DNA of 64,000 nt. It comes from Perna viridis (Eukaryota). The stretch lies in contig CM074512.1 of assembly GCA_037379345.1 (NCBI GenBank), positions 22,320,001-22,384,000 on the forward strand, read 5' to 3'. The notes beneath the pieces were generated by a model. The model did no database searches and was not told where the DNA came from. It worked only from the letters and a program-made list of their open reading frames with translations. Below, in pieces: positions 8,434-42,424 of this stretch. Position 1 is the stretch's first letter. Every line of letters begins with the position of its first letter. Position numbers and translations under genes: made by a program.

Positions 8434-11400
8434 ACTATTTTATTGGTTTCTGTGCGTCATTTATTCGCTAAAAACAGGTACAAATTCTTTCTGATACATT
8501 ACCTTCATCGATTCATTTCAAAATCGATATGAATTGTTCAAATGTGAAGTCATCGCAATCGATTCCTGATTAGCATCTAATACCACCCAGAATTTGTGCA
8601 TTGAGTAAACTTAATGGATAATTGTTAGAAACAAGACCGGGAACTAAAACACCTCTTGAAAGCAAATATACAAAACTATCATAGGGTTGGAATGAATAAA
8701 GGAAGACATAATTCATTCTATATTAATTTAAAATATGAAAATACAATCTTCTAAAAATGTGACAATATAAACAAGGAAAATGTCAAAAACAGAGAGATTA
8801 TTCAAAGGAATACTATTCTGGACTATGTTTATAGGTAAGCTTGATATGTAAATTTCGGTTTGGACGGCTAAGGTGGGACTAAAATTTATCTTAGAAGAAC
8901 TGATTAATGCTTAAAAAATTGGAATACGGAGCTTTCGACGATTGTCCAATTTTCAAAAAGGCCTGCATAAAAAAGAAAATAAGAGATGCCATAAGCCATC
9001 AGAAGTATTTCCTAAACACGTACATCCCAATGTATATATTAAAACATTTAAAGATGTCTAGCTCTTATAGAAAAAAACTTCGTGTTGATTAACCATCATC
9101 TGGAATGTTATCATAAACACGAAAGACTAACAATATTTTGATTAATGCATGATCATATTAATAACATTTTTCATCTGTGTTCAAAGGTCATTTCAAATTT
9201 TACAGGTTACAATTCTTTCACGCTTAAAGGTACGTCTACATTTTGGAAAAAAAGTTCAATACAAGCTCATATGTATGTAGCGTCTTAGTCCATTGCAAAT
9301 ATCTGTACAAATCAAATATTTCGTAAAATATAGTAACTTCTGTCCTCGATTGTAATTCTATGTTTCGATCTCACAAAGAAATTCGGTAGAACAGACATGG
9401 GTGAACGGTAGTAAATCATGAAAATGATGACAACAATGATTCATCACTTTATAGCAATGTCGAAGAAATATGTGTAAATGTGTGTAACTGTCAGTTGTCA
9501 TAAAAACGTATCTCCCATATGGAGTTCATTTTCCATATATTGGCGTTCCAAGAGCTTAATGACCTCAGTTAAAGAAACATGATCTTTTTTATAACTTCTC
9601 CCTTGATTCTTCTACATGACGAACCTATTCCATGAGTTTAAGGTTTCATGTCAAATGGACATGTATACACAATTATACTAAAACATATAGTTTTATCTTT
9701 CAGCGACTGATAGCAAGTCAAACTCAACAAAATCGGTAAGTCATACTACCGTTGTTATGTGGTTATACATACCGCAATGTACAGGTCTTAAAAAATGTGC
9801 ATAATTATACTTGCACTTCTTCACTGCAACATATTGAAAACCTTCATTCTACCCTATATATACAACACTGCCACATAAACTTAGTAAAGTAAAATTGTCA
9901 TACAATGTACTTAATTAAACGAACCATTGAAAAATCTGGTTCTCAATTCATTTCTTGTAATGGTGGGCTTAGTACATTAATTGGACATACATTATTTTAT
10001 GATCAGTGCTTTGAATAATTTTATTGACCATATTTTTATTCGATTTAGTAATACTATAAACAGATAGGATTTTGGTATTCCGATGGGACTAGTTGTGCTC
10101 CTCTCATAGCCGATTTGTTTCTCTGCTATTATGAATCACAGTTCACGGCTAAACTCTTTAAAGATCCTTCAAAACATGATCTGTTGTACAAATTCAATAA
10201 TACTTTTAGATATCGTGATGATATTTTGGCCGTAAATAGTCCTCCGAAAACTATGTTCAAGATATTTTCCCAAAATAACTTTTGACCAAGTCTAACAATA
10301 AGAGTACATGTACCCGTATACCCTTTCTTGATTCAGATTTTACACTAAGAAAATGGCACCTTCGGACTTCAATTTATGACAAAAGATGTTGGTTAATTTA
10401 CCATTCCTGGATTGCGATATAATTACTGAAGAACTCCACCCCCATGATACTGGCCCGTTTCGCTCGTATTTGTAGTATTCAAAGATTTTAATGAGCACCA
10501 AAAATGTCGATATCACAAACTTCTAACAACATTTTAAAGTTTTTTTTTCACCTTTACAAGACTTTGATACATACTGAATATTATAGGCTAAAAACCACTA
10601 ATTCCACTTCCCATAGGCTTCTATGCTAATTTCACAATATTCAATGGCTTCTCTGGACTTTACCTTAACTTTAACCTGCAGATGACTATATATCAGCATG
10701 ATTCTACATATGTCAGCTCACAATCCTCAGAATGGCATGTGGGGTTAGCAGACTTGCAGTGCAGTACTGGTCACCGGAAGTGAAGGGTCTATAAATAGCA
10801 TGGGAAATCCCAGTGTTTTCACAAGATAGGGGTATATTTAAAAATCATTATGGAGATTAGGCTTCACATCACAAGAAGCAAAATGCACCTATAAAATGTA
10901 CAGAAATGTTTTTCCTTTCAGAAACTGTTTAAATTTTTAAAATAAGATGAGAACTTTTTTCACAGCACTATGAGGAACAGGGGTAATTTCTGCGTAGGAC
11001 TATTTTTGCGTACGTTCCAAATGCTCATTGGTTGAATTGGTGGTCTGTAACCTAAAGGGTCACTTTTTGTCTTAGAAAAAATAAATAACTATACAGGTAT
11101 CTTCCTACACACATACTGAATGCATTTGCAAAGTTTCAGTGAAATGTGACAAGCACTTTTTTAAATATTTGATTTTTAAATATAGGGTAACCAAGTTGTG
11201 CGAGCAAAAAAGTGAAAATATTCTACCATACTGAAATGCATTAAATATTTGCAAAGAACTTTTTCTGACTTTTCAAATAAAAAATATCAATCACAACTTG
11301 TTTTTTAACAATATTAATGAAGAAATAGTTTTAAAAGTAATCATTTTCTGAGAAATTGGTCTATTTTTTAAAATTTATTTCTGACATGCCTCCCCCTTTT

Positions 11401-14400
11401 TCTTGATCACATGTCAAAAATCCTAAATCTTTAAATTTTCACAAAAGGTGATATATTTGGCTTTAAATTTGTAAATACAGTGTTTTCACATTAAAACATG
11501 ACCAGTAAAGGGCACCTAAAGCAAAAAAAGTGCTCAATAATGGATTTTCCATGTTGCCATAGGGGAATGCTTATATGGCCTTAACCGCAGTAATGAAAGT
11601 GAGTTTTTCCTCATTTCTAACCTAATTTTTGCTCAAATCTACACAAAACTTGATTTCAAGTGCTTATTACTACCATATTTAGGTAAATATAGCCCTCAAA
11701 GTTTAATATTTGATATTTTTACTAAATTTTCTACACTTTTTACAAGATAGGACATCAAAATCAGCCAAAAAGACCAATTTTCCATAATTTGGACCTATAA
11801 CTTAAAAAAATGCATATTTTGAAGGATTTTTGTAGTGTATTCCTCTCATGGCAAAGTTAACAAGATCTTCAAGTAGTTTAAAGCTATTTCAAGAAACTTT
11901 TCATTTTGCCATGGCTTCATCTTAAGGCTAAAAACCACTAATTCCACTTCCCATAGGCTTCTATGCTAATTTCACAATATTCAATGGCTTCTCTGGACTT
12001 TACCTTAACTTTAACCTGCAGATGACTATATATCAGCATGATTCTACATATGTCAGCTCACAATCCTCAGAATGGCATGTGGGGTTAGCAGACTTGCAGT
12101 GCAGTACTGGTCACCGGAAGTGAAGGGTCTATAAATAGCATGGGAAATCCCAGTGTTTTCACAAGATAGGGGTATATTTAAAAATCATTATGGAGATTAG
12201 GCTTCACATCACAAGAAGCAAAATGCACCTATAAAATGTACAGAAATGTTTTTCCTTTCAGAAACTGTTTAAATTTTTAAAATAAGATGAGAACTTTTTT
12301 CACAGCACTATGAGGAACAGGGGTAATTTCTGCGTAGGACTATTTTTGCGTACGTTCCAAATGCTCATTGGTTGAATTGGTGGTCTGTAACCTAACTATA
12401 TGTATGTCAAAATCTGTATTGCATACTTATCAACCCTCGAACTGAGTCACCCGGTGGGTCATTGTAACGACCCCCGAAATACAACACAGCACACCTGTCT
12501 ATTCGGGATTACTTGGTTCTGAATTCCAATTTGTATATCATATATTTTAACCATACTTCAAGTATGGTCTGTAAAGGGGTGTGATATAGGGTATGCGATA
12601 TAAGGTAGACGATATAGGGTTTAAACAAACTCTTAGAATACATATGCAAACATGTTATATTTTAATCTAAATATATGATATAAGTATATACCATATATTT
12701 AGATATAAATATAATTTTTTTGCATATGCATTATAAGTGTCTATTTAAACCCTACAGCGTTTACCCTAAAACAAAGAAAATAAAATAACCAAAAATAATA
12801 CGTACAAAGCAACAAAAGTAAAAGAGCAGCTCGGACTTCACTATAAACTGGGAGCATGTACCATGTGCATCGGTAGGGTAAGCATACTGTTTTTATAGAA
12901 ACACCCACCGAACTGCCCATAAAAAGTCAAGTCCGGGGTAGACAAAAGAGGAAGGAAAAACTATGTCACGTTGAACAAATCGGTTCTCATCGGGCAGATG
13001 GATACACGGCGTAACGATCCACGAGTTCATGATGACCATAAAACATCTGTAGTGATAACTTCAATCTTGTAACAACATAACCCTGTGCCAGAAGCCTAAT
13101 TGTAAGAAGTCTAGCGCGGTTCCAAAAGTCTGCGTAATTACGGTAAGCTCTAACATAACGTACGAGTTATGATATGAAAACTATATACGCAAGTGCTGAA
13201 GGAATGTTGCCACAGATGAAAGGAAAGTTGACAGTACAGAATGAAAAGTCCTCGCGTTTGTCGTATAGTTTGGTCAGTAGTTTTCCTTGACCATCGATCT
13301 TTAAGTGTGGGCCAAGATATGAGGCTGACTTCACAGTATCTGTAGTATCTTTTATCTCATGTATTAAATCGCCGAAACTAGGATTGTTTAACAATAATAC
13401 GTCATCTACAAATGTACATATACTAGAACATGAGATCAAAGGATCTGGCTAACGATATTCCTTCATTTGGATTAGATCAGCTATAAAGTCAGTCTTATAA
13501 GAGTAAAGGAATAGGTCTGCGAGTAGAGGAGCACAGTTTGTTCCCATTGGAATGCCGATATCATTTTTTTTTTCTTTATTTGATGTATGCTGAGGCATTC
13601 CGCGGAGAGAATTGGGTGTATTATTTAGTGAATGTTATGGTGTGTTTTGTTTTAGTTCATTTTTTACTTTAAATTAAAGTGGAATGGTTAAATGTATATA
13701 AAATCAGTCCATCGCATATTTACATCGTTACAAAATTTTGATACAAAGTGTCTATGTTTTGCACCGTTACAAGTAAATCGTAGATTTCATGCGCCTGTCC
13801 AGAGTCTGTGTCGTTATATTACATTTTTATTTGATTTTGAAGATTTGTCATCGTTCTGTTACCGTGGTTTTTATTGCATTTTTGTCGGGGCCTTTCAGAG
13901 TTTACTCATTTGTTGTAAAACTTTCGGTGATTTCTGAAAGAATTTACTCTTTTGTACTAATAAGATAGTATTAATAGGTTATACGTTGGTATGAAACTTC
14001 ACAAAATCGGGTCTCTACAAAAAGTAATTCATCAAAATAGGATTTATTAGCAAACTGTGCACTAAGTCCATTTCAATAAATCTCTCATACAGTTTAGTAA
14101 ATATGTTTGAAAGTTATCATAATTAATGGAAAAAATATACAAAAGAAAATCATTCTATATACAAGTTGTCAACAGACAATTTTTTAATTCAAGTAGCAAT
14201 TTTGCATTACTCAGGTTTTCTCTTCAATAAGATAAGGACAGCCCATTACACAAAAAGATCCGCATCTAGCAAGAAGTGAAACATAATTATTATATCCCGT
14301 TTGTCTCTAATGGTACCATATTGAAATTTAGTCAATAAAATTTATACACGAAAATGTAACTATGCAATTCAGTTTGGAGGCGAATAAGAAGTCCAACGCC

Positions 14401-18585: not shown

Positions 18586-18786
18586 TGAGTGTTAGTATAG
18601 TTATTGTTAACTGTTGAGTGTTAGTATAGTTATTGTTAACTGTTGAGTGTTAGAAGTTATTGTTAACTGTTAGTGTTAGAATAGTTATTGTTAACTGTTG
18701 AGTGTTAGAATAGTTATTGTTAACTGTTGAGTGTTAGTATAGTTATTGTTAACTGTTGAGTGTTAGAATAGTTATTGTTAACTGTT
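18586..18786. repeat. 29-bp tandem minisatellite, about 7 copies
   Basis: Unit tgagtgttag(t/a)atagttattgttaactgt. Confidence 0.95.
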
Positions 18787-19177
18787 TACAACAATAGAAA
18801 TGTTGCAATAGTTTCAAAACTTACAGTAGTCAACATTCAGTCAAAACACATTTCATCACTTGGCATACTAGTATTTCATCTATTTTACACAGATACAGAA
18901 AAAGCAACAGGCATTATAAGAGCTCTGCACCAAACAGTAAGAAATCATTTTAGAGAAAACTATAAATACGCTGAATTTTTGTTTCAACACCTGACTAATT
19001 GTTCTTTATACTGATTATATTATGACATACTACAGCTTATAGCGTCCAGACGTATGTTTGACATTTGTAATTTAGACTTGTTCACAAATCAAGGAGGAAT
19101 CATCAGATATACAAAATATTTCCTTTTAAAGTTTTCTAAACAGGGAACACAGTAAAATGTACTTATCATTTATTTAT

Positions 19178-20570
19178 AACATTCAAGTCAATTGCAGCAA
19201 CATATCTGTCAAGTTAATGACAATATTAAAAAGAAATCTGAAATAAGATGTGTTGGTGTATAATTTGCTGATACATGTGTTGGTGTATAAATTGCTGAAA
19301 TATGTGGTGTATAATTTGCTGATACATGTGTTGGTGTATTATTTGCTGATACATGTGGTGTATAATTTGCTGATACATGTGTTGGTGTATTATTTGCTGA
19401 TACATGTGGTGTATAATTTGCTGATACATGTGGTGTATAATATGCTGATACATGTGATGTATAATTTGCTGATACATGTATTGGTGTATTATTTGCTGAT
19501 ACATGTGGTGTATAATTTGCTGATACATGTGGTGTATAATTTGCTGATACATGTGGTGTATAATATGCTGATACATGTGTTGGTGTATTATTTGCTGATA
19601 CATGTGGTGTATAATTTGCTGATACATGTGTTGGTGTATTATTTGCTGATACATGTGGTGTATAATATGCTGATACATGTGATGTATAATTTGCTGATAC
19701 ATGTATTGGTGTATTATTTGCTGATACATGTGGTGTATAATTTGCTGATACATGTGGTGTATAATATGCTGATACATGTGATGTATAAATTGCTGATACA
19801 TGTGTTGGTGTATTATTTGCTGATACATGTGGTGTATAATTTGCTGATACATGTGGTGTATAATATGCTGATACATGTGATGTATAATTTGCTGATACAT
19901 GTGGTGTATAATATGCTGATACATGTGATGTATAATTTGCTGATACATGTATTGGTGTATTATTTGCTGATACATGTGGTGTATAATTTGCTGATACATG
20001 TGTTGGTGTATAATTTGCTGATATAATTTAAGATTCAATTGCAGCAACAACATATCTGTCAACTTATTGACAATATTAAAAAGAAATCTGAAATAAGATG
20101 TGTTGGTGTATAATTTGCTGATACATGTGTTGGTGTATTGTTTGCTGATACATGTGTTGGTGTATTATTTGCTGATACATGTGGTGTATAATTTGCTGAT
20201 ACATGTGTTTGTGTATAATTTGCTGATATAATTTAGGATTCAATTGCAGCAACAACATATCTGTCAACTTAATGACAACATTAAAAAGAAATATGAAATA
20301 AGATGTGTTGGTGTATAAATTGCTGATACATGTATTGGTGTATTATTTGCTGATACATGTGGTGTATAATTTGCTGATACATGTGTTGGTGTATTATTTG
20401 CTGATACATGTGGTGTATAATTTGCTGATACATGTATTGGTGTATTATTTGCTGATACATGTGGTGTATAATTTGCTGATACATGTGTTGGTGTATTATT
20501 TGCTGATACATGTGGTGTATAATTTGCTGATACATGTGTTGGTGTATAATTTGCTGATATAATTTAAGAC
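19178..20570. repeat. 24/27-bp minisatellite arranged in three higher-order blocks
   Basis: Unit tgctgatacatgt(gtt)ggtgtataatt. Blocks are separated by a conserved ~75-bp spacer (caattgcagcaa..catatctgtcaa...ttaaaaagaaat.tgaaataagatg) at ~19190, ~20035 and ~20240. Confidence 0.95.
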
Positions 20571-20999: not shown

Positions 21000-21170
21000 A
21001 ATTAAGAAATAAATCACAAAAACTCCATTTCATCACTGTTTTACCACAGGCTGGCCTTTCATGTAGCATTGTTTTACCTGAGCAATAGCCAGGGGTTAAA
21101 TTACTACATAAATGGCCAGCCTGTGATAAAACAATGATAAAAGGGAGTTTCCATGATTTATTTTGATTCT
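21000..21170. repeat. Foldback hairpin (non-autonomous transposon end)
   Basis: aataaatcac..aaactcc..tt.atca.tgtttta.cacaggctggcc versus ggccagcctgtgataaaacaatgataaaagggagttt..atgatttatt, centred on a gcaatagc loop. Confidence 0.6.
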
Positions 21171-22509: not shown

Positions 22510-25500
22510 TCATGATGGAAAAAGTTCCATTAAACAGTTTCTGAGAGTGTTCATATATCTGTCCCACACTATCTGTAGTCTTGGTAGGGATCTAAAATGT
22601 AGAATCTTAAAATGTAATATTTGTAATGGCAACAATTGATGATGATATAAAAAGTGCACATGTATATATTCAAAAACATACAACTAAGGAAAATATTACA
22701 GTTAAAGCAACTTTGGTTGTTTGCTCCGCCCGACTCAAACCAGTACCTCTATGACATCTATGGCAACACTGCCTGCACTAAGTCCAGCACCCTAGACCAC
22801 TTGACATATATATATGCTGAACTGCAGAGTTAGAAATAGTAGCCTGCCCGTCAGACCGAGACTGGCTATTTTTTTGGCAGGGCTGGCTAATTTTAGCAAA
22901 AATCTATATAGCCATATAGTAAATATATTGAAAAATTGTATTCAGGACTGGCTTATATTTGAGTGAGTTTCCTACCCTGCCTGAAGCCTTAAAATTTTCC
23001 TCATTCTCTCTTTTTTCATAAGTGTGAAAAGGTAATTTTAAGAAGTATCTCTTAATTTTTGTCACTGTAACTTTGCTTGAAGTTTCAATAATATTTGTTC
23101 AATATTTATGGAGTTACAGATTATGCAAAGTAAGTACCTCTAAGTGTTAAGACCAGAAGGATGAAGTCAAGCGGCTACTAGACCCACTGTCAATGTTGAA
23201 GATGCACATGTGGGTCAAAAAGTAACTAATGATACTTTCAATAAGCCAAACACAAGTCAACAGTTGATTTTGCTGAAAGTTCGAGATACATAGCTTACCT
23301 CATTAGATCCATATTTTTTGCAGTACTTTGATATGCAGTAAAAAAGGTCTGTAAATCCTCTCTACTCCACCGAGCAGACTGACATGGGTCTACAATCTAG
23401 AAAACAAGAAATATTTTGAATGCCATTGTGCAAAATGTAGAATGAATATCTTAAAATTTCGTATGTACCAAGTTACCAAAATATATTCCATTATTACGAA
23501 ATCAAAATGTGTGCTTTTGCAAATTGTTGACCAAGTATGCTGTAGTTTCTCAGCACACTTTAGTTTATACTAAGAATGTTGAAAATAAGTCAAGAAATAA
23601 ACCAGGAAATTCTGAGGATAAATGTATCTATATATCTAAACCATTATCTTTTGGAAAAAAACCAAACAAGCAATAGAATTATAAAATATTATTTATCTGA
23701 ATTATACAATACATTCAAATACATCAAATATATGAAGTATACAATTTCTTGATACATCACAAAAGTATAAACATTTCTTACTGGGGTTAAAGCCTCCGCT
23801 CTGAAACATGAATACCTAAATAATGGTTCCATAGGAAGTGACATATCTCAGAAATAGCACATGCAGTTCGGATGTAATTGTCTGAACCTCTAACACAGAT
23901 GCACATTGTGAGCTAAAACAAGTCAAACAAATTTCTTTCAGTCAATATATCAACAATACACCAAGCTACGGGTGCATTATCAACAGATTGACGTGCTATA
24001 TGAGTACAAATAGCTACATCCCTTATTGGCCAAGCCATATAACAAAAAAAAATATCCAAATACAGCCATTATGGTCAACTCTATGACATAAAACTAACCT
24101 TTTTAATGAACTTAATTTTAATTTGGATTTTTGTTGGGCTTATCTTATGTCTAAACTTGCAGACAGCTAAAATATATTTTAACAGAGTTCAACTTACCTT
24201 GTCATACATATCTATAAAGATATCTCTCACTTCTCGACTATGATTCAATCCCATTGCAATATTTATGATAGATTTTGAAATATTCTACAAAATATATGAA
24301 AGTTCATAGTAAAATGGTAAATAAGCTAAACAATCAACTTTGAGAAAACCAATGACAATTATGTGCTTAATATTCATTTCAGACTATTTATCTTCATACT
24401 TCATAAAAGTGCATACATGTATATACAGGCCAATACATAAAACTTAGCATTAATAAGAAGTTGCACACTTCATTTTGCTAGGTAATCCCTAGTCATACAG
24501 AATGTTGATATTTGACAGCACCAAATATGCTTACAACTTATGCCCCATCTATATTAAGCAACATTCCACATTTGAAATCAATGGGAGCAGTGGCAGCTAA
24601 GACATTTGTAATGAAAATTTTCTCTATCATTCCATACAGTCCCACAGTACAGGAAGTTGATATCAGACAGCAACCAAAATCACTTACAACATATCCTCTG
24701 ACTTTATAAAATGCTAAATTTGAAATTGATTCACCCATTCGGAGCCTAGATAATTGTGAAAAAAACCTAAAGGAATGGAAGGCATGACAGACAGATGGAC
24801 AGACAAGCTGATTTCAATACACAAAATGTACCAACCATTTGTTAAAAGGGGGGTAAATTACAAATGTACAATATTCTTCTACTGGCAGTTCAATACTTCA
24901 TTGATGAGCTATGTTTTCAAATGAAAGATTTAAGGTCTACTAGTACATGTATATAACCCATATATTTTTTTCCCTTCTATTTTTTCTTTTCTTTTTGTCA
25001 TGAAAATCAGTATTTACTGTGAAATACGATATACCTTAAAGTTGTCTTCAAGATCTTGTAAAGCCCTCCGTGAAGTGTTGGATCTAATGGCATGTAAAAC
25101 CAAGCTGGAAGTATCAAAATAAAGTATTATAAAAATGACATTTTTAGTAAAAAGCTCAATTAAAGCATACATTGTGCCCATCCAAAATGTTGTGTATAAT
25201 GTCCAATAACAAATAAAAACTGGGAAAACAAACCAAAAACAAAAAGGAGATTCTTTCCATACAGAAAAACCATTGTATCAGAAAATGATACAAATTCATC
25301 GAAGCATTTTGAGTTACTGGTATCTAATGAACGAGTTATTTGGGGTTTGACACTAACTTCATTTGTTTTGTGGTCAACAGGACTACTTCTGAGGTAAAAC
25401 AGGTAGTCTGCAGACAGAAATGACGATTCTGTTCTTAGGTTTTATGAAAAATAACACAAAATATATATAGCCCATAGGACTACCATGATCATTTTTCAGG

Positions 25501-28500
25501 CAGTCCTCTCCAAAGTTGGGGTGGCATGGACTATAGGACTACTGTTAGTGTCGATCCCTGTAATGACAGTAGTATACCATACACTGTTATGCATTTCCAA
25601 AAATCAGCATATATTATATTGTGTATCTAAATAAACTAATAAATATATTGCATTCCAAGCATTAAATACTTTAAAATATAATATCCTAACCTATTCCCTT
25701 AACTACCCTAAAGTGTTTGGTTTCTGCTTTCCACAAAAAGATAGAACTATGGTTAAAATCTGCACATCTTACTGTCAAAAATAGTCTTTCACTCATTAAA
25801 AATCTGTTATGCACCAGTTACAGATGAAAACTGTCACAATGATATTGAGTCTTGTCAATAAGTCAATGTGTTTAAATGCTATAATGCAGTCTCTCTGCTT
25901 CTCTTCCACACACCAAGACTCCATTATTCACTGAGCAAATCATTACATAGGTTGTCTTTAGTCTGATTATTAAGGCTAACAACAAGGGTGACTAGCATAA
26001 ATTAGTAAAATAAAGTGTGAATGAAAGGTATTTGTTCTTTTAACTGTTTTTTTTTTTAGCTAAATGTGACCACAGATCAACTCCCGACATTCAACAAGTC
26101 AAAGGTCAAAGTAATGGTAACATTTTACTTATGTCATGAAACAGGTAGTCCTGAACTGTGAATTAAAAGCTTAAGGAATAAAAAAAAATTTTGGAAATGC
26201 AATATATCAAAGTAAGTTCATCAAAAGATTGATATATAAAAGTGAAATTAAGAATTTAAACTGTAACTATACTAATAATTTTAAACACGTCACTTCCTTA
26301 TATATACAGCATATGTATTATATAATATCTTTGAAGTCTAATGCAGTAAGACCCTCTGAATCTCTGGAAATTAAATTGTACCTAGATTTTATAGAGAATT
26401 ACATGACGTGCCGTATATTGTTTTTTTTTTTTTTTTTTTATCGTGAGTGTCTTATTTTTTGCAGTGTTTGTGTTAACATTAAAACACCGAAATTAGACAC
26501 AGCAAAACTTCCTTCAAAACTTGGAATTTTTTATCTTTCAAAAAGGAATCCATTAGGAAATTGATGTTTTGATATAATATCCCCCTTCCCCTCAGCTATT
26601 TGTATTAAAAAAATTATCCTTCAAAAGGCAAATAACGGGTAAAATTGTTTACTTACATTATGATACCCTAATTAGATATCAATTTGACACATGAAAGAAT
26701 TGCAATTATTAAATCCATCAGCTAGGGTACCGATTGTCAAAATTGATTGAAAGAAAGCATGTGGCATCAAAAATATCAATTCTTGAAGAACTTTAATTAA
26801 AAATCTTTCCTATCCAGGATACTGTCTAGAATTGGGTATATCAATGAGATATAAATATAGCATGTTTTTACTCCTCATTTCTTTATTCTGAATAAAATCA
26901 AATGTTCATCTTACTAATATATTTTAATGTCCCTTGCAATGCCTCAAAAGACACTGTTTATTTTACCCATGTCATGGTTCATTGTCAATGTACAGTTAGT
27001 TTCTATTCCTTGAAATTTTGAATTCATATTAGGATGTTTATGTATACAGTGATTTCTATGTATGTTTTGTTAAACACAATGAAAATTTAACTTGCTATAT
27101 TTCTTTTCAATTCACAAAAAGAAGGCCTATGCCAAAACACAATTTCAAAATTGGCTATTTTAAATAAGTGGCAATAACCCTATACAAATGCTACTTCTCA
27201 CAGGCTGTAATGCCATACAAATCGATAAAGTGTAATTATGTAGAGGTAAGATTTTCTTATTAAAGGATGAAGTGAACACTACCTCCATCCCCATAATTTT
27301 AAGAGAGTCTAGGGCATGTTCCCATCACACTAGGAACACAAGACTGTATATCATAACACCACATTACACAGTGGCTTTTGTGGACAGTAACACAGTAATT
27401 TATTCATACCTTCTATGCTCCTCAATACTCTCTTTATCAAGCAATAGTTTGAGCTCTCTGAGATCTTGAAGAAACGTTCGATCCAAATCTACATCCATAT
27501 CTTCATGACTTTTACATTCTGGAAAAAAGACACATTGCAGTTATAAAATTCAGTTTTATGCCATATTTCCAAATCATAATTTAAGCCATGATCGATAAAG
27601 TGGTGTTGCTCTTCTACTTGTTATATTATTTACATCTCACCCTATCAGGCTTACTGTGATATTTTTGTCTGGAATTCAAAATGCTGTTATTCTATATATA
27701 CCAGACCATACTCAATCATCCCAGGACCTGATTAGTGAAGATTAAATATGTAAATAAACACTAAGCAAGTTAAAAACTACAGTGTGGCTTGCAAATTTCC
27801 TAGAGTCATGTACTAATTATAGCATATACTGCTGAAAAAATGGCTAAATTCATCGTGCAAAAAACTGTAAAGATAAAATTAATCAAATCAAGTTTAACAT
27901 GCTAAAGATGTAGGAAAACATATGTAAAATTTCTCCATATTATGAGATGCACCTCTTCAAAATGTATATAATCACTGTGCAAAGTTTCAATATTATTTGG
28001 TAAATACTTTTTAAGTTACAGATTACACAAAGTAGGTACCCCCTAAGCATAACAGATTGACGGACAGATGGAAATGAGCAGCTACAAGACTTGCTTTCAG
28101 TTGATGAAGAAGGTAAAAATGGGTCAAAAACAGAAATGGCAGAACAGTAGATGTCCGACAGGCCTGAAATCAGGTCCCATACCTTTCGCTGGATACCAAA
28201 TATCAAAAGGCTGTGATTAGTAGTCGCTGAGAAAAGTGTTACAGTAATAATTTTCCTACCCACTTGCCACCAGACAAACATTCACCATTCTATAATCAGA
28301 TTTTCACATGTGTAATTCAGGATGCAAAAAGACACTGATTAAACAATGTGTTTTTGATCTAAATACATCATATTTTTACTTCACTACAGTCCTTTCTGCA
28401 AACACATCTGTGTATTTTTGATAAAATTGTGCAATTATATCCCACTTGAATCAACCAAATCAAGAATGATAACTGTTGCGAAGTTCTATACAACATTGAT

Positions 28501-31500
28501 CTCATAAGTGTAACAATTAAATGACAAACTATGACTATGTGGTCTGTAACTGTTTCTGAATCAGAGGTGAAAGTTATTTCTGTAGGTTTTTGACATGCAT
28601 GAGTCACCTCCTCTCTGATACTTATTAAGTTTGCTTCTTAAATCATTGGTTATTGTTTCCTGATTGTTTCGACATGCCCTTACCTACAGCACTGTAAGAC
28701 CAGTTGACAATCATCTGATTAGCACAATTAATGAAGGTTTGTAATGGATATTGGCTAAGCTTCTTCTTTCCTGTCTCAAATCTATTATTAGCTATAAATA
28801 CTAATGCTGAATACTGTCTGTAATAAAGAACCATTGAAACTAAAAAATTAGGAAAAAGTAACTGAATCACCAAATATTTCGAATAACTACATGCTTTATA
28901 AAAATGCAAATATTTAAGGATTGCCTTTTGTGATTTAACAAATTTTGGGGCAGTTTACACCTCACAAACTGCAAAGCCATTTATGAATGAGCATAAATTG
29001 CCAAAGACTTGATTGTGAAAGCATAGTGGCCATAACATTAATATAAACTGTTTATCACAGAGATAAGTCTTGCCTGTTTGATATTGTCAATATAATGATG
29101 TGTTTGTTAAATATTATTTTTTGTGTTGCTTTCATATTTTGTATAACAATATAAAATTATAAAATTATCATTTTTGTGTTACCACTACAAAATGCACTAG
29201 GCTGTGGCGTATATGCATAAAATTGAATTTGTGATGCAATGATGAAAATGAATAAAATAAGGGGTTCATATAGAAATCAACTTATCATAAAACTTAACAT
29301 TTAACTTTTAACATTGAATTTTATAAGTCCACAGACCATGACTGCATGGGTATGTGCGTAAAATAGCATGATTTTGTGATGCAACGATGGTAATGCATCT
29401 GTACACCAAATATCATTGACCTTGCATAACGAGGTTCATGTAGAAATAAACTTATCTGAAAACTTAACGTTAAACTTTAACATTGAATTTTCTAAGTCAA
29501 CAGACCATGACTGCAGGCATGAATTTGTGATGCAATGATGGTAATGCATCTGTACACCAAATATCATTGACCTAATATAAGAGGTTTATGTCAAAATGAT
29601 CTTATCAGAAAACTAATGTTTAGTATGTGGAAGCCGCTGTCGCAAAGAAAGCAAAACCTAAGTCTTGCCTTCCACTACTTTGTCACAGGCAAGACATAAA
29701 AGCTTAGTAGGGCACAACTTGTTTCAACTGCTTTGAATTTGAATTGTTATTACCAGTAAATGATTGACACATCATAAGCTTCTGACAAGAATGAAAATCA
29801 TCTAAGAACTTTAAATTTGCAATTAAACAAAAGACAAGTCATTTGTAAAAAGTACACATAAAAAATATATACTGCTAACTCTATTTTTTTATCCTTATTC
29901 TTTTAATAATGGTATTTGTACTAAAGTTTTTGCAAATAAACCTAAAAAAATGCATGTTTTTGGCTCCTTTTTGGCCCTTAATTCCTTTATGGTTCAAGAC
30001 ACAATTATTTAAATCAATAAAAACTTATCCACCCATATTCAAATTGTTGTTCAGGAATCATAATGTCTACCAATGACAAGAAGACAACAACAATGCCATA
30101 CCATTACATGACAATAAGTTTTTTTTTGCAATCCTATAAAACAATCATTACTACTCTATAAAAACCATTCCAGTCTTAACCAAAATCCAATGCTATATAT
30201 GTAAATCATATTTATTAGTTTATATTAAAGGTGGACTGCAAACCAATCCAATCGTCTGAATATAGCTGAAATATTGCTGCTCGGACATTAAACCCCAACA
30301 AACAAACAAACAAACAAACAAACAAACCAATCCATATTAATGATGTGATAGTACCTAACTACAAATGAAGGTTATACAAAATGATCCTGAAAGTACCAAC
30401 CAAGCAGTAGGTTTATTACACTTCAAATCTGACTACATTACTATATATAAACAACATATATCTGAGAGGATAACAAACCCTCTATCACCCTCTATGCTAT
30501 GAGAGGGTAACAAACCCTCTATCACCCTCTATGCTATGAATTATTTATTTCATTACACTGAAGTTTCCATTGTCATAATTTTTTCAATTTAAGCCCTAAC
30601 AATTAACAAGGAACAATCAGTTTTGCACTTTTTCTTTTCTTGATTAATATTGTTTATTTTCTTCCAAGTTTTCTTGTATATATATATTTCATCCAACTGT
30701 AACTGTTTTGACATGAAAGAATTAAAAACAAACATAATAAAAAAAACTTAAAAAAAAAAAACACAAAAATAACAACAAAATAAATACTAGTTAGAACATT
30801 TTCTTTTCCGGATCCAACTTCCTTCCCTTTATAATTTGACAATGCACTAAGAAATGTTTGGGTACAGATTCACAGTAGAATTAGCATCATAACTACAAAA
30901 TATATACGTTTGCTGAATTTGATGTAATTATCTTATTGATACGGATCGACATTGCTCATATTGGTTACATCAAATGCAAAACTGACTAATAATGTACTGG
31001 TACCTTATATTTCCCTGAACCAGTTTAGCTCTTCAAGAAAAGGTAATAGGCAAAAAAAAACTATCACCATCTGAGACATGTGATAGAGCACAATCTCACC
31101 CTGGTGTTGAACCAATCAAAATACAGCAAATTGACATGAAGTATAATAAATAACTTGATTACATAAGACTCTATTTTACTGTTTTTCTATTAGCCAGAAG
31201 CAGTACACGTGGTATTCCATTTTCTAACATATTGATTAGCAAAAAGATGTTTCTGTGCAATCATATTGCACTCTTGAGCTAAATTTATGAATGAAAGTAA
31301 GTGGCATGAGCCATCATCGTCAATGAAATTGTAATAGCCAATCAAATCACTTCTAATAAATGAATCAAGCCAATAAATAAATATTGTATCGGAAGCTAAT
31401 CGGAACTCAATTGTTGTTTGCAAAATGGCAGCGCCCAACATAGACGGTAACTCTGACAGCACTGGAGCTAATAAAATAAGATTTGCCGTTATAACTAATT

Positions 31501-34500
31501 CAGAAATCACAGAAATTATTAAGAAAAAGGATGCTGAAAACACTTGAAAATCAACAGAACAAGCAATGAGAGTTTTCACCAAATATTTACGTAAAAACGA
31601 CATGTCAGTCAGTTTGAAGTTTATGGTTTTTTAAAAATCTGTAACACCTCTGGAATTAGACCCCATTCTATCTAAATTTTATGCTGAAGCCAGGACGGAA
31701 TGTTGCATAAGAAGTCCTGTCTGCAAACTTTTTGCCATGGACTATGTCGTTACTTCTCAGATTATCGAGAAACTTACATTATGAAGGACAGTGACTTCAA
31801 AGAATCCATCCGTGAGGTGGCACTTTTACATGCAATATAAATTACTATTTTCATCATAAGAAACTGTTCAAACCGCAAAACTGATGTTTGTTGTTGATTT
31901 GTTGCTGATTTGATCTTGTTATAATTAAATTTGTTGAATTTAAAGGTATTCAATATTTACACAAAACAGTAAAACAGAGCCTTATGTAATAAAACAATTA
32001 CTTCACTTGAACTTGATCAATATGAAGTTTTATGGAGCAGAGTACAATAATATAGAATGAGGCGAAGCCAAGTTCAATATTGTTGTACTCTGCTCCATAA
32101 AACCTCATATTGATCTCGTTCAAGTGCAGTAATTGTATAATAACAAGCAATCTGTAGTGTATGAATATCCAAATACATGTATTACAATCAACACTATTCT
32201 GATTTTCATCTTACAGTCTTTATTACTTTCTAAAACAAGCTTGATTTCTCAGAGATCCCAAAGAAAAGCTAACCAACCCCAATACATGTTACAAGTAGAA
32301 AAAAATTTTAATAAACCCTACATAACCTTTAAAATACAACAGTGGGTATTCATATTCACAGTTCCATGTTCTTCAAAATAAAACAGTAAAAGGAACTTGA
32401 ACCCATATACTTGGAATTTCTTATCTTAGAAAGAATTACTTTACCTAGCTAGATGTGGTGACAAAAGGAAATTTGCTTGAATGTTATCAGTCAGTGATCC
32501 CATCATTTCTTCAACAGCTCTCAGCACCCGCTTTAAGTTGTCAAACTATAAAATGTTAAAATAATACTAAATGCTGAAGCACATCATTCATTCAGTTCAT
32601 GATTAATGTAATAAGTTTTAGGTATAGAGAGGGTATTTTTTTTCAACATTAAAGTATGGAAACAACATTCAAACTTGATACAGCTCTTAACTTCAATTGT
32701 GTCTTATGTTTGAAAAATATTTTGACCAGAAGGAAAGCAGTCAAAGAACTTAAAAATTTGCAGTTAGACATAAGAAATTAGTAATTTAAAGTTAAAATTT
32801 CTGACCCCTTATTGGATCTTATTTCCTAAAAGATAAGGGACATAATCCTTTAAATCAATCATTTCCTTCCTTTGATGTATGAAGTCTAGTATTATGAATT
32901 CATTGAGCTTCATAGACTTTTACTAAAGTCATTGTCTAAAAACTCCTAAAATGTGCTGTTAGTCTCTTTTGACCCCAAATTCCTTCATGGATTCGTTCCT
33001 AAAATTAATCCAAGTCTGACTTTCTGAAACTAGAAAAAAGCCTGTAATTGGATTTTACCTGCCAAAATTCCTAAATATCTCAGGTTATAACCCCCAAAAT
33101 CAATCCCAGTCAGAACTTTGTGGTATAAAACATTGTGGTATTCAAGTTATTCATTGAAATGCTTAATTTTTGCCTCTTAATTCAAAATTGGTTTTGGGCC
33201 AAAACCCTCAAAATCAATACCAACTTTCATTTTGTGGTATGGAAACATGTAATAAAATTGTATCAAAATTACCAATTAAAATTCATACTACAATGACTAG
33301 CATGAAAAAAATGTGTCTACAGACAATAACAACGATACAGATGATGATGATTGTGCCGTTCCATAATATCAGAGTAGATTATTTGTGGTTGAAATAAATA
33401 CTTGATATTATGATATAGATAGCAGTGTTTTATCGAATGTTCCCAGTGTAATAAATTTTGATAATTCACACTGTGAAATAAATTTCGTAATTTCACACTT
33501 GCGCTTTCTCCCGCCAAAACGTCACAATTTTTATATCAATCCACCAATCACAGAATTTCAAATTCTTATTGAAAATACAGATAAATTATGAAGAAAATCT
33601 ATATAATAAATAGGATAATCAATTGGTTATCGTGAATAACCAAAATATGATCGCTCATGCCAAGAACACTTGAGGATCTAATGCTCCGCACACTCATTAA
33701 ATCTAGGCATTCTTCGGCACTCATGATAACATTTTGGCTCTTCACTCTTTCCAATTATTTATCCTATTATTCTTTGCACATGGTGTAAAATCAGAATTAT
33801 TGCAATCTTTTTATCATTGTGCCTTGTATGTGATGGCAATAATTAAAACTCACATTTTGGATACTTTAATAATACTTAAAGGCACATTTTTTTCTCACAA
33901 AAATTATAACCAAAATTTGGTCATCAAAAACAAATTTGCAAAATTGTGTAATAATAATTGCACACAATAATTTTTTAAGTTATGTCAACTTTCTTTAATA
34001 CCTGGCGTCTACATTTTTTCAAACTGGTCTTAGTTTTATCACTGACATCATCTAAGTCTTTTCTGTTTCTACCAGATAACTTTTTTCGAAGTATTTCTCT
34101 GAGTATACTTTCATCAAATTGATAATACCTGAAAAAAAAACCAAAAATATTTGTCATCACTATGGTCCTTAAGGTGGTCATTAATAACATATAAAAGAAT
34201 CTTAGTTAGTCTCCTCACATGTTCTACAACCCCACATTCTCCCTTTACATTTACATAAAAGTTCAGGCAAATCAAACAAAATTTACATTCAAGTTCAAAG
34301 TATCATTTTTACATAGTATAAAAATTTCCTTTATATATGCAAGTCAACATAGTGTTTCTATATGCATATAGCATAAAATAGCATGAAATTCTTGTTCTAT
34401 GGTTTTTCAAAAAGACACAGATAAACTGCTTCAACTGCATATTTACAAAATCTCTATTCCATCCTTAGTCTCCACTGTCAATTATTCAACACATAAGAAT

Positions 34501-35924
34501 TTTTGTTAATTTTTTTCATGAATATGATTCAGTATTTTTTTTTGCCCATATTTTTAGTTCAAAAAAGCATACTAATAACTCCTAGAGAAGACATTTTCAT
34601 TAAAGTTAATCTGATGATTCAGGAGCAGTTTGGTTAGTAAGATATTGTGATTTTCAACCCATTTTCAAAATTCCTTTTTCAAAAATTTTGGAACCACAGA
34701 ATGTATTTCTACTGAACATTACTGCATACACATGTTGTTTTATTAAAAAATCATCTACTGGCATAACCATTATTGTGCTAACAAGAACTCATAAATCCCC
34801 TCTCCCCTCTTTTAAAATGCAAATACATCTAGCTTTCCTTAAGTGACTATTTTACAACAGGTGTACATGTTATGTACTTCCTTTGTGTGAAGTTTTATTG
34901 CAATCCATATAGAATTGCACTGACAAGAACAGAACAAACAGACAGATGGAAGAGTTCAATTCCATATCTTATTGGCAAAAAGATGGTCTCACTGAAGGAT
35001 TGGTCAAATTTATACAAAACAAGTACTTTTCAATAAGAAGCCTCTGAGACTCTGAGTCTATCTGATGTATTTGTTGATCAGCCAGCTGGGTTGGGTTCTT
35101 CAACATTTTTTCTAAATGATTAAACAACCTGTAATGATCATGGACTTCACTGATAATGTCCTCAATTGTGACCCCTGCACTGTGCTGCAAATCATTTTTC
35201 TGCAACACATTGGCGGCATCAAGAACTGAAATGTAAATTATGTTCGTTTTTCAGATAAGCACAAAACAGCTTTATAATATAAGAAAATTTTAGACAACAA
35301 ACAAATATAAAAAATAAAATCAAGAAAAATATTTGATATCAATTTTGGGGAAAAAAGATTATTATTTTATAGTATAGAAATTTAATCAACCTTTTTATTT
35401 TTACCCTTGGTTGTCATAAATTTCCCTATCTTGCACTTTCAGTGGAATTATTTAAGTATTTTTATAATTTCCAATTCCTTAACAGATATGGTACTTATAA
35501 ATAGGCATACTGATTACACTTGTAATTGGTCTGTGTTTTTTCTTTTTTGACAAATCTGAGAAACGTTTGTTCCATCAATTATGTAATTTCTGTTCTTTGT
35601 TAAACATCACTGATACATCATCTGACTAACAACACAATTTGTAGGAAGTGTACACAGATGACATAATGCACAAATGATACAAGGGTCAACGTACGAATGG
35701 ATCACTAAAATTAGTTTTAATATCAATAAGAAATAGTTGATACTTGTTTTTTCTATTATTTTTATGCAAATATTCAAAGTTTATCTTAACTGTAAAAATG
35801 CTAACTGCTCACAAAAACATTGTTATTTACTATACAGTGTACCTGATAACCCAGTGATCCAAAGATCATACAATTCAAAGTCTATGATAGTAAAATTCCC
35901 AACAAACACATCCAATGTCGCCAT
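22510..35924 (-). CDS. FIBP: Acidic fibroblast growth factor intracellular-binding protein, 10 coding exons, 362 aa
   Basis: Exons 35924-35843, 35225-35027, 34128-34002, 32545-32445, 28817-28684, 27518-27410, 25104-25035, 24284-24198, 23396-23299 and 22591-22510 are all GT-AG with consistent phases (1089 nt). Protein [27 protein letters not shown]...[27 protein letters not shown]...[15 protein letters not shown]...[18 protein letters not shown]...[18 protein letters not shown] matches the FIBP motifs I recall along its whole length. Confidence 0.96.
29190..29700 (+). mobile_element. Helentron-associated (HINE/pearl-like) element with ~160-bp internal tandem repeats
   Basis: About 3 diverged units containing gtgatgcaatgatggtaatgcatctgtacaccaaatatcattgacc, then a 3' hairpin gtcttgcct...aggcaagac followed by an A-run. 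Confidence 0.5.
30225..30330 (+). mobile_element. SINE 3' tail with (CAAA)n microsatellite
   Basis: gaatatagctgaaatattgctgct..gacattaaaccccaacaaacaaac. A related tail lies on the minus strand at ~35980-36035. Confidence 0.5.
30464..30538. repeat. Short tandem duplication (~37 bp x2)
   Basis: gagagg(a/g)taacaaaccctctatcaccctctatgctat occurs twice. Confidence 0.9.
31141..32143 (+). mobile_element. Decayed Crypton (tyrosine-recombinase DNA transposon) in FIBP intron 4
   Basis: The frame from ATG 31425 reads MAAPNIDG...[38 protein letters not shown] / [16 protein letters not shown] / [17 protein letters not shown]...[10 protein letters not shown], a Crypton/KCTD1-ZMYM-type N-terminal pattern. 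Terminal direct repeat GTATAATAA at 31141 and 32135, subterminal inverted repeats 31158-31186/31963-31990, and a long terminal hairpin at 31996-32135. Confidence 0.75.
33360..33772. mobile_element. Non-autonomous element with a terminal foldback (Crypton-like architecture)
   Basis: Hairpin aataggataatcaattgg...ccaaaatatgatc versus gataacattttgg...ccaattatttatcctatt (33609-33770). Confidence 0.45.
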
Positions 35925-37058: not shown

Positions 37059-37306
37059 AGTCCGAATTTCCTCTGATCCTGCAACCCTCCTCTGTTTTAT
37101 TTGTATGTCGGTAATGGAGTGAGACTAATCCCTTTTAAGATTCAGTTATTCCGAATTTCCTCTGACCCTGCAACCCTTCCCTTTTTTTATTTGAATATTG
37201 ATACGTCAGGTGACCCGACACATCAATATCCAAATAGAAAAGAGGAGGGTTGCAGGGTCAGAGGAAATTCAGACTAAATGAATCCCAAAAGGGATTAGTC
37301 TCACTC
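37059..37306. repeat. ~190-bp near-perfect palindrome preceded by a partial direct duplication
   Basis: Arms 37117-37210 and 37213-37306 are reverse complements (gagtgagactaatcccttt... / ...aaagggattagtctcactc). 37059-37105 repeats part of the left arm. Confidence 0.85.
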
Positions 37307-41000: not shown

Positions 41001-41188
41001 TGATTCCTAGGCAAGAAACAGGAACCAGTCGAGGACAACATTACACTTTTACCTTATTTTCTTTTATATACAGTCAGGTAAACAGTCAACTTACTTTGAT
41101 GGTGTTATGGTATACTTCTTCTTGCCGTATAATTATGTACACCATTTAATTTCATTCCAGAAATCAGTTAAATTAGCTGTTCCAAGCA

Positions 41189-42424
41189 ATGTTGAGGGCC
41201 GTGTTAACAGCAGTTTATGTTGTGTCCGGTGTCCATATATTTCTAGGAATTTTGAGTGTGTGTTTGGGAGTAGTGTCTAGCATACGTTCTGAGGTGTGGT
41301 TGGCTCACAGTGTATCACCTATATGGAGTGGTGGCTTTGTAAGTACTAAGTTATATTCATCTTACTAGAAGTACCATTTTGGAAATGCATAACTATATGA
41401 TTTTAGTACTTTTACAACCCGCAATGCCTCGAGGTTTTCCATTATTAATTCATTAAGAAAAACTTATTCTTTTACTGGTAGAGGTGTCTGAACTTGGTTG
41501 TTTAATCTTTTTCTGTAAACATTACATACTTCAAATAACTTTCAGTTAAACTAATGGTTATGACAAGATTTGGTTTCTATTACAGTTCATCATTACTGGA
41601 CTTATTGGAATATTGTGTGCAAAAAGAAAGACATCATATGTGGTAAGTAAATCCTAAAAAATTCAAGTCAATTTGTATTCTCCATTTTTCTCTACGAATT
41701 TTGACCTTGTTTTAAACCTGTATTCGTTCTTTTAGTGACGGGACTACGCTTCTGAAGAATGATTATGTCATTCAGAGTTATTTACCGTAACGAAACTTAA
41801 TAGATTTATCCTGGTGGCCTTAGTGGAAAAATTGATAATAAAACATTTGAAATTACATATATTGTATAATAATGACCAGTTGTTGGAAAGTGTCGAGGGT
41901 AACAAAAAACAAAACAAAATAAATACAAATACAAATAAACAAATCATGAAGTAATAGCTCCTGTATTTCTTAAGAGAACTATGTATCTTCTTTTCGCAGA
42001 AGTGAATAAGATCAACATTAAGTTTACCATATATATCTATTTATGCTGTTGGTAAATTTTATGGCTTTATTTTTATTTTTTTTTTCAGATAATGAGCTTT
42101 ATAGCATTATCAGTAGTTTCTATAGTAACAGCTGTAGTAAGCATTCAGCTATTGCGTCTTGGACTAGTGAATCACACTACAGATGGGAAGACCTTTCAGA
42201 AAGAAAATAAGGATATTTTGATCTTGATAGCTCTAGCTGTTGCAGGAACAGAATGCATTGTGTGTATACTGTCCTCCATATTAAGTTGTAGAGTAGCCAA
42301 AATAGCTAAAGAAGAAATGTTCAAACAAAGAGAGGGAATGTTCTATGTAAAGGTACTTGGCCAAAAGGATATCGTTGTAGTTACTAAACCACTGTTAACA
42401 AGAGACGAAAATATTGCACTGTGA
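41189..42424 (+). CDS. TMEM196: Transmembrane protein 196-like (CD20/MS4A-like four-TM fold), 3 exons, 180 aa
   Basis: Exons 41189-41338, 41586-41642 and 42089-42424 are GT-AG, phase 0. Protein MLRAVLTAVYVVSGVHIFLGILSVCLG...SVSPIWSGGFFIITGLIGILCAKRKTSYVIMSF...IQLLR...LSSILSCRVAKIAKEEMFKQRE matches the TMEM196 motifs SPVWSG, GILCAKKK, LSSWLTCRLA and MFSERE (from memory). Confidence 0.85.

Follow-up and report, generated by a model that had tools for sequence, protein, structure and literature searches.

A probable non-autonomous KolobokP DNA transposon with identical long terminal direct repeats in a mussel genome

A 64-kb stretch of mussel DNA (the window, analysed over its full 64,000 nucleotides) contains a 1,807-bp unit in which two identical direct repeats enclose a short middle, and each repeat is itself bounded by inverted repeats. 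The locus raises the question of what kind of mobile element this is, and of how and how recently it came to lie where it does. Our analysis indicates, with a probability of roughly 0.9, that this unit represents a non-autonomous DNA transposon of the KolobokP group, from a family related to KolobokP-1_BaPl and absent from the published consensus set. Below we set out its architecture, the inverted ends of its repeats, the absence of coding capacity, and the homology at the DNA level that links the repeat and the two inner junctions with a published family.

Architecture and coding capacity of the unit

The unit has the layout that characterizes KolobokP, in which a pair of long terminal direct repeats (LTDRs) flank an internal region (INT), here with lengths of 467, 873 and 467 bp. 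The left LTDR occupies positions 10586..11052 and the right LTDR positions 11926..12392, both on the plus strand, as do all features below unless stated otherwise. The original prediction had described two identical 467-bp direct repeats; its coordinates are exact, no differences are found, and the exact match extends to 471 nt (10585-11055 versus 11925-12395), adding a single base at the left side and a TAA at the right. Each LTDR begins with GG and ends with CC, the RR..YY type expected of KolobokP TIRs, and has an imperfect terminal inverted repeat (TIR), the 5′ arm of which (10586..10607) pairs with 11031-11052, and likewise in the right copy. These features had also been predicted, and the arms match at 10/13, 15/19 or 17/22 positions, with no better register found when the LTDR boundaries were shifted. 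A score of 15/19 is reached by 3 of the 63,533 segments of 467 bp in the 64 kb, namely the two LTDRs and an AT-rich inverted pair at 47377-47843.

These dimensions agree with what is published for the group. KolobokP LTDRs are near 450 or 660 bp in length, each with its own short perfect or imperfect TIR and 5′-RR..YY-3′ ends, and complete non-autonomous families span 1,421-3,784 bp, a range that includes 1,807 bp (PMC9587614). The 467-bp LTDR falls within the ~450-bp class, the nearest family having 470 bp. The same layout, overall size and LTDR class are found in the non-autonomous families KolobokP-N5_CGi (1,738 bp), -5N1_OwFu (1,797 bp), -2N1_BF (1,819 bp) and -N1_CorFlu (1,463 bp). Canonical Kolobok elements (Kol0 and others) share the 5′-RR..YY-3′ termini and short TIRs, but their duplications are TTAA-specific and they lack long direct repeats (PMC9587614), whereas the flanks here read TATA and TAAC and a TTAA duplication is absent. 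The analogy drawn in the same study with bacterial composite transposons, in which two TIR-bounded direct units surround a cargo region, is an analogy only, as the LTDRs here encode no transposase.

The INT (11053..11925) is non-coding, has a GC content of 28.5%, starts with TAAAG and ends with TCTTAA; KolobokP INTs typically start and finish with short AT motifs (PMC9587614). Near its 3′ end lies an imperfect fold-back (11847..11913, assigned to neither strand; 71.6% over 67 nt in a self-blast) with a folding z-score of -3.1, 1 of 200 shuffles being as good, although this was one of four segments folded and was picked after being seen. The three terminal LTDR and INT segments folded no better than shuffles (z-scores of -0.14, 0.65 and 0.75).

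The prediction that the element lacks an open reading frame agrees with our scans. The longest stop-free frame, located in the INT, is 69 aa, and the longest minus-strand frame is 55 aa. Pfam gave no match for the element frames scanned, namely the three of at least 62 aa and nine shorter ones on the minus strand. Neither a DDD/E transposase on the direct strand of the INT (873 bp, at most 69 aa, without a credible homologue) nor a His-Me finger nuclease on the opposite strand (at most 55 aa, no Pfam match) was found. Three of 1.84 billion proteins matched the 69-aa INT frame; all are long, repetitive proteins whose scores add up weak matches and whose best single-stretch tblastn E-values against the 1.8-kb element were 0.002-0.044, and they were rejected as chance. 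The 63-aa LTDR frame yielded no candidate, and the window gave no Rfam match and no tRNA. The 64-kb window contains no further copy of the LTDR or of the middle (blastn with word size 7; motif search), no solo copy and no transposase. A search of a prokaryotic genome collection with a 30-nt LTDR word gave 0 matches, a result that is uninformative on dispersed copies.

Kinship with KolobokP-1_BaPl

Comparison of the unit with the published consensus sequences (Data S1 of PMC9587614) was by eye rather than by aligner. The closest relative, KolobokP-1_BaPl from Bathymodiolus platifrons, is an autonomous element of 4,169 bp with a 470-bp LTDR, a 4-bp target-site duplication (TSD) and a 20-bp TIR (PMC9587614, Table S1 and Data S1), and its transposase is included in the tree of Fig. 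S1 of that study. By eye, the two LTDRs are collinear. The last 56 nt of the LTDR, a conserved segment (10997..11052) with GGACTA at -56, show 41/56 ungapped identity, for which the binomial probability is 4e-13, or 2e-10 allowing for 228 families on two strands. Positions 73-108 of the LTDR match at 27/36 with an offset of one base, a segment chosen after inspection; a 9-mer is common to position 168 of the LTDR and position 167 of KolobokP-1_BaPl; and the 5′ TIR arm matches at 13/19. KolobokP-1_BaPl was selected on its LTDR before its INT was seen, and the two INTs agree by eye in 13 of their first 16 nt (P = 3e-5) and in all of their last 6 nt (P = 7e-4). No likeness was evident by eye in the middle of the LTDR (about 215-410) or in the body of the INT. 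These homologies support the predicted membership of KolobokP as a non-autonomous element, and the description of the group on which that prediction drew (long direct repeats with their own TIRs, solo copies, occurrence in molluscs and other invertebrates) is accurate (PMC9587614).

The two elements thus share a collinear LTDR, the INT termini and a mytilid host, but KolobokP-1_BaPl is autonomous with a 4-bp TSD, whereas the element here has a non-coding 873-bp INT and a 2-bp duplication. Since identity is about 70-75% and is restricted to the conserved segments, the element represents a separate family. Word searches of the consensus set gave no exact terminal match to a non-autonomous KolobokP family (0/3 and 0/6 forward words, 0/6 reverse words). 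Six of six 9-11-mers from the element occur in the set, the first place listed for each being no terminal match to this family, and two of six further words are present, in KolobokP-1_BaPl and KolobokP-1_HaRub. The consensus files break every 70 letters, such that internal words can escape detection but terminal words at a record start cannot. KolobokP is recorded in Mytilus, for which Table S1 lists only two non-autonomous families, H1_MyEd and N1_MyEd (PMC9587614); neither is similar to the element by eye. Because no published family matches exactly, the family of this element appears to be unlisted. A 98% match to TMEM196 of M. coruscus marks the host as a Mytilus-like mussel.

The insertion site, age and alternative explanations

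As predicted, TA flanks both outer ends: the left flank reads TATA (10582..10585) and the right flank TAAC (12393..12396), so that the last two bases of one are the first two of the other. Only this TA is duplicated; no 1-, 3-, 4-, 5-, 6- or 7-bp duplication is present. KolobokP target duplications are mostly 3-5 bp, with 2-7 bp across families, and Table S1 gives 2/3/4/5 bp for one family (PMC9587614). Most insertions of the related KolobokP-1_MeMe have a clean 4-bp duplication (by eye, uncounted), but a minority are imperfect, and one row has only TA in common (PMC9587614). The TA flanks are the single atypical feature of the element when set against the usual KolobokP 4-bp duplication.

The left flank also carries a decayed reverse-transcriptase gene (9776..10570), with tblastn matches over 9776-10525 and a profile match to about 10570, which ends ~15 bp before the left LTDR. 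The prediction of an old Penelope-like remnant abutting the element is borne out to this extent, the Penelope-like label being based on sequence motifs, together with Atlas neighbours. The nearest Atlas clusters of a relative of this reverse transcriptase have HTH_animal and RVT_1 in a share of their members; for two relatives Pfam returned nothing at 1e-3, and for one a PDB search was likewise negative. To the right of the element, no plus-strand tile exceeds 2 bits for the retroelement, and the remnant was not seen to resume. Given this and the duplication of TA alone, the insertion site may be rearranged.

The most probable alternative concerns the site: a KolobokP element whose flanks derive from different events, because recombination between two nearby copies, or a transposase-driven deletion beside one end, removed the intervening DNA, including the rest of the retroelement. 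The differing 4-bp flanks, the fit of the left flank to the T-N-N-A preference of KolobokP-1_MeMe insertions and the end of retroelement homology ~15 bp before the left junction, with nothing above 2 bits on the right, are all consistent with such a history. However, TA is duplicated, and 2-bp duplications are on record for one family. A profile of the missing C-terminal segment matched nothing clearly in the whole window (best E-value 0.31), which deprives the test of a positive control, and it could miss a decayed continuation; in one right-flank frame a Cys and a Gln-Pro are spaced as expected, but only 2/12 residues match. We regard an unclean insertion as possible, if on the unlikely side.

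A collapsed consensus can homogenize near-identical repeats, and the zero differences over 471 nt could thus mean that assembly or polishing created the second repeat, or at any rate made the two LTDRs perfectly identical. This is improbable, because a known architecture is reproduced with family-typical inner junctions that an artefact would not invent, and the 64-kb window contains no N. An artefact would account for LTDR identity, and hence for age, more easily than for structure.

At a borrowed substitution rate, the LTDR identity would suggest an age under about 370,000 generations, and this copy is probably young. We infer that KolobokP LTDRs, unlike retroviral LTRs, are not remade at each insertion, and identity therefore limits age only if neither later gene conversion nor an assembly consensus homogenized the repeats. 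Of the original prediction of a very young element, the identity over 467 bp stands, whereas the age drawn from it holds only in the absence of such homogenization. Other bivalves contain equally young KolobokP families, with 1.3-2.3% diversity (PMC9587614), so the mussel family is not unique in age.

It is very improbable that the unit comprises two independent, MITE-like solo repeats separated by 873 bp, or that part of the locus was duplicated locally in tandem, with ordinary host DNA in between. The right LTDR does lie between two TAA triplets, the pattern expected if a solo copy had inserted with a 3-bp duplication, and solo LTDRs are common in KolobokP (PMC9587614). Against this, both ends of the middle match those of the KolobokP-1_BaPl INT and have the short AT motifs typical of published INTs, and the limits of the duplicated tract lie no more than 1 and 3 bases from where the inverted repeats end. 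A non-autonomous LTR retroelement of the TRIM or LARD type, moving through RNA, would share the short non-coding middle enclosed by identical direct repeats and the TATA-like motif within the repeat, and solos and tandem arrays occur in TRIMs too, but the chance of this is negligible, because the termini lack TG..CA, as predicted, no primer site starting with TGG lies beside either LTDR in either orientation, the polypurine tract positions have only 6/15 and 8/15 purines, no 4-6-bp duplication is present, the LTDRs are bounded by a long TIR and homologous to a DDD/E-transposase family, and TRIMs are mostly <1 kb (PMC9587614). The split repeats of DIRS/Ngaro elements were dropped as a candidate, since the layout is A-INT-A, without a coding remnant, and is homologous to KolobokP.

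Proposed mechanism and a putative promoter cassette

For the non-autonomous KolobokP element that we favour, the model of PMC9587614 suggests that a DDD/E transposase from an autonomous partner elsewhere in the genome would bind the GG..CC inverted ends and cut at the two outermost ones, with insertion at an AT-rich site by a short staggered cut. An LTDR has two ends of its own; a single LTDR might thus also be mobile, or be left behind as a solo copy, and LTDR-LTDR recombination would yield solos and tandem multimers (PMC9587614). The 2-bp TA duplication could reflect insertion with a short stagger, or a duplicated TATA whose right-hand copy has since lost two bases; an identical empty site is predicted by both readings. 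A nuclease-driven multimer model awaits experimental confirmation, according to a 2026 review (PMC13565253).

The LTDR contains several motifs that recur by eye in published LTDRs. A subterminal motif, TTCCCATAG-N6-ATGCTAA (10608..10629), has a counterpart in KolobokP-2_CHo whose offset is almost the same, and several oyster LTDRs contain related forms. A putative promoter-like cluster (10768..10811) comprises CCGGAAGT (10774), TATAAATA (10790) and GGGAAATCCC (10802), which we take to be ETS, TATA and kappa-B sites, respectively. The 14 nt from 10768 are identical in KolobokP-1_HaRub at the equal LTDR position, 183, and the CCGGAAGT site is found near 185-191 in the element as well as in 2_MiYe and 1_HaRub, and in inverted orientation in 5_MoPh. 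The element also has a reverse CCAAT box (11024-11033, minus strand), 25-26 nt in from one end; a survey by eye of roughly 56 published LTDRs in full, plus some excerpts, shows it so placed in nine (2_CGi, 5_CGi, N3_CGi, 1_SaGl, 2_PeMa, 2_MiYe, 1_BaPl, 7_GiAe and 4_MoPh). Variation at the base following CCAAT is mostly of the kind that the NF-Y consensus allows. Across the window the CCAAT-box pattern shows no enrichment (three matches, two of them the LTDR copies; 7/100 shuffles reach three), and the case therefore rests on positional conservation. A bacterial promoter scan, which is inapplicable to animal DNA, gave 9 sites versus 7.1 expected.

These motifs raise a speculative and rather unlikely reading, in which the KolobokP LTDR would also be a promoter cassette, convergent on the retroviral LTR, and the copy here would come from a mussel family that is mobile at present and spreads these cassettes. 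The left LTDR would then drive the transposase in autonomous copies, and the right LTDR and solos would fire into host DNA. If true, this could account for LTDR retention and for the constraint on LTDR length, and solo LTDRs with CCAAT and ETS-like motifs would generate regulatory variation in the way that solo LTRs of retroviruses do.

The element adds one apparently unlisted non-autonomous family to the about 228 KolobokP families described in 2022 (PMC9587614), a new example of a type known from bivalves and not a new kind. Insertions that are polymorphic, alleles without the element, circles and an intact transposase partner could all be obtained from a very young mussel family for tests of mechanism. 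Mussels are easily sampled, which gives the family practical value for testing the KolobokP mechanism, as yet unproven.

Architecture of the element and its assignment to KolobokP

The element at 10586–12392 spans 1,807 bp and consists of a pair of long terminal direct repeats (LTDRs; 10586–11052 and 11926–12392) around an internal region (INT; 11053–11925) of 873 bp and 28.5% GC. As originally predicted, both repeats are 467 bp long and show 0 differences; the exact match outgrows the LTDR by 1 base on the left and 3 bases (TAA) on the right. The GG start, CC end and imperfect terminal inverted repeats (TIRs) ascribed to each repeat were recovered, with 15 matches over 19 positions and 17 over 22. 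Across the 64 kb, 3 of 63,533 windows of LTDR length carry an equally good TIR, these being the two LTDRs and an AT-rich inverted pair at 47377–47843, outside the element. The predicted lack of an open reading frame also held: the longest stop-free frame of the element is 69 aa, and the frames scanned against Pfam gave no match. The 69-aa frame returned 3 matches among 1.84 billion proteins, all repeat proteins and judged to reflect chance, and a protein search with a 63-aa LTDR frame yielded no candidate. No additional copy of the element was found within the 64-kb window.

CpG is under-represented over 10586–11925: its observed/expected ratio is 0.24 (LTDR) and 0.11 (INT), against 0.58 for the window, a scarcity that could be a trace of past methylation of the family. 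A fold-back with CATGGCAA arms lies near the INT 3′ end (11847–11913; z of −3.1 against shuffles). The INT termini, TAA-AG (11053–11057) and CT-TAA (11920–11925), resemble a small RR..YY unit with short AT motifs on either side, a pattern seen by eye in several published INTs.

KolobokP transposons are defined by an LTDR–INT–LTDR layout in which LTDRs near 450 or 660 bp each have short TIRs of their own as well as RR..YY termini; the listed non-autonomous families span 1.4–3.8 kb (PMC9587614). The element displays all of these traits, together with DNA homology to KolobokP-1_BaPl, in agreement with the KolobokP-type reading first proposed. This autonomous family from the mytilid Bathymodiolus platifrons was reached through an 11-mer search of the consensus set. 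As counted by eye, the last 56 nt of the LTDR align to it ungapped with 41 identities (binomial tail 4e-13, or 2e-10 once 228 families and two strands are allowed for), positions 73–108 match at 27/36 with a one-base offset, and the first 19 nt match at 13/19. The INT of KolobokP-1_BaPl was inspected only after the LTDR match had singled out that family, making it a test fixed in advance; by eye, the first 16 nt agree at 13/16 positions (p = 3e-5) and the last 6 nt at 6/6 (p = 7e-4). Whereas the two elements are alike in these LTDR segments and at both INT ends, the remaining LTDR middle and the INT body diverge without evident similarity by eye, which indicates a separate family. The ~56 LTDR consensuses compared over their whole length, among them all 19 Mytilus sequences, include no close relative, and exact-word searches of the remaining published families in both orientations gave no terminal match. 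By these comparisons, the family appears to be absent from the consensus set of PMC9587614, "unlisted" referring to that 2022 set.

We conclude, with a probability of about 0.9, that the unit is genuine and is a non-autonomous, probably young KolobokP element whose family lies outside the 2022 set. The INT-end matches set the inner boundaries independently and make the middle part of the element; they disfavour a reading as two independent solo repeats or a local duplication. An assembly artefact could account for the LTDRs being perfectly identical but could hardly produce junctions typical of the family. A TRIM-like retroelement is very unlikely, as TG..CA ends, a primer site, a polypurine tract and a 4–6-bp duplication are all absent.

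Insertion site and surrounding sequence

The outer flanks read TATA on the left and TAAC on the right, giving a duplication of TA only. The predicted TA at both outer ends was seen, but it departs from the pattern of KolobokP-1_MeMe, a family of the same broad tree part. In the available part of PMC9587614, the insertions listed for that family mostly carry clean duplications of 4 bp, in many cases T-N-N-A (by eye, uncounted), with an imperfect minority that includes one row in which TA alone is common to the flanks (by eye). Table S1 of that paper enters one family with duplications of 2, 3, 4 and 5 bp.

A decayed gene for a reverse transcriptase (plus strand, 9776 to about 10570) flanks the element on the left, and its homology stops ~15 bp short of the junction; no continuation was found to the right of the element, in a test run without a positive control for the missing segment. 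The TA-only duplication and the missing right-hand homology point either to an insertion at the end of a remnant that was truncated beforehand, by a short stagger or by a TATA duplication minus two bases, or to a recombinant or deletion product, which we consider the less likely of the two. The original prediction had placed a Penelope-like remnant here; the decayed gene was found, and we take its motifs to be Penelope-like. A second decayed reverse-transcriptase gene occupies 13005–13580 (minus strand), and decayed pieces related to the same family or its ends lie at 58315–58812 (plus), 39290–39496 (minus) and 47021–47840; 12770–13056 and 47091–47380 are 83% identical. Among Atlas neighbours of a reverse-transcriptase relative, a share of members have HTH_animal and RVT_1 domains.

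The nearest coding exon detected, 11 kb from the element, is the FIBP exon at 23298–23396, from scans that covered all frames of at least 62 aa save the 19.1–20.6-kb minisatellite, together with 150 of the 169 shorter frames on the minus strand below 28640, and that short exons may escape. The FIBP gene (23298–35250, minus strand) has four further exons by Pfam (34972–35250, 33978–34205, 28646–28954 and 27403–27540), and one of its introns contains degenerate direct repeats with a period of about 150 bp (29224–29614). TMEM196-like exons (CD20-like family) lie at 41177–42421 (plus strand), where the exon at 42092–42421 shares 98% identity with TMEM196 of Mytilus coruscus and other mollusc matches reach 64–78%, which places the host as a Mytilus-like mussel. 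Two tandem calmodulin-like EF-hand genes, with DNA about 70–76% alike, follow at 46177–46861 and 50921–51914 (minus strand).

A minisatellite of about 52 copies of 24/27-bp units (19254–20559; higher-order periods of 51, 75 and 198 bp) produces long open frames on both strands. Tandem arrays of 29-bp units (18586–18797, 7 copies) and 41-bp units (44037–44791, 18.5 copies) are also present, as are palindromic MITE-like fold-backs of 160–460 bp (12601–12768, 21007–21163, 31985–32145, 37117–37306 and 47380–47840).

CCAAT and promoter-like motifs in the LTDR

A reverse CCAAT box lies at 11024–11033, 26 nt inward from the LTDR 3′ end. By eye, nine published LTDRs, mostly from one tree part, have the identical five bases 25–26 nt from their end; the family 5_MoPh has a one-base variant, and other-branch LTDRs lack CCAAT at that position. 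A CCGGAAGT site at LTDR position 189 recurs at about 185–191 in three published LTDRs, once reversed, and is not found in that of KolobokP-1_BaPl. Downstream of it in the element are a TATA-like and then a kappa-B-like motif; the factor names attached to these motifs and to CCAAT are presumed. The CCAAT-box pattern is not enriched over the window, which counts against a promoter lead, and the motif may instead be a transposase-binding subterminal site, as its position adjoining the TIR would fit. The words "promoter" and "CCAAT" are absent from the main text of PMC9587614, and a literature search pairing Kolobok with CCAAT found nothing.

Age and proposed mobilisation

The 0 differences in 467 bp place a 95% upper bound of 0.64% on LTDR divergence. 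At the abalone mutation rate of 8.6e-9 per site per generation, as stated in the available part of bioRxiv 10.1101/2024.09.16.613283, the age would be below about 370,000 generations, by hand arithmetic with this borrowed rate, a bound that fails if the LTDRs, 873 bp apart, were homogenised by gene conversion or assembly consensus. Of the recent mobilisation originally proposed, probable youth is supported by the LTDR identity, which does not show present activity.

Among the molluscs studied, Kolobok elements are nearly limited to bivalves, according to the available part of PMC10294476. Extrapolating from the model in PMC9587614, multimers would arise by unequal crossover, perhaps triggered by the partner's His-Me nuclease; the available part of a 2026 review (PMC13565253) describes this nuclease-induced step as still awaiting experimental confirmation. 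Solo LTDRs would arise by excision or recombination under the same model. The element has no coding capacity, and its ends and architecture are suited to a Kolobok transposase; following that model, an autonomous relative would supply a DDD/E transposase that acts on it in trans, recognising the inverted ends of the LTDRs.
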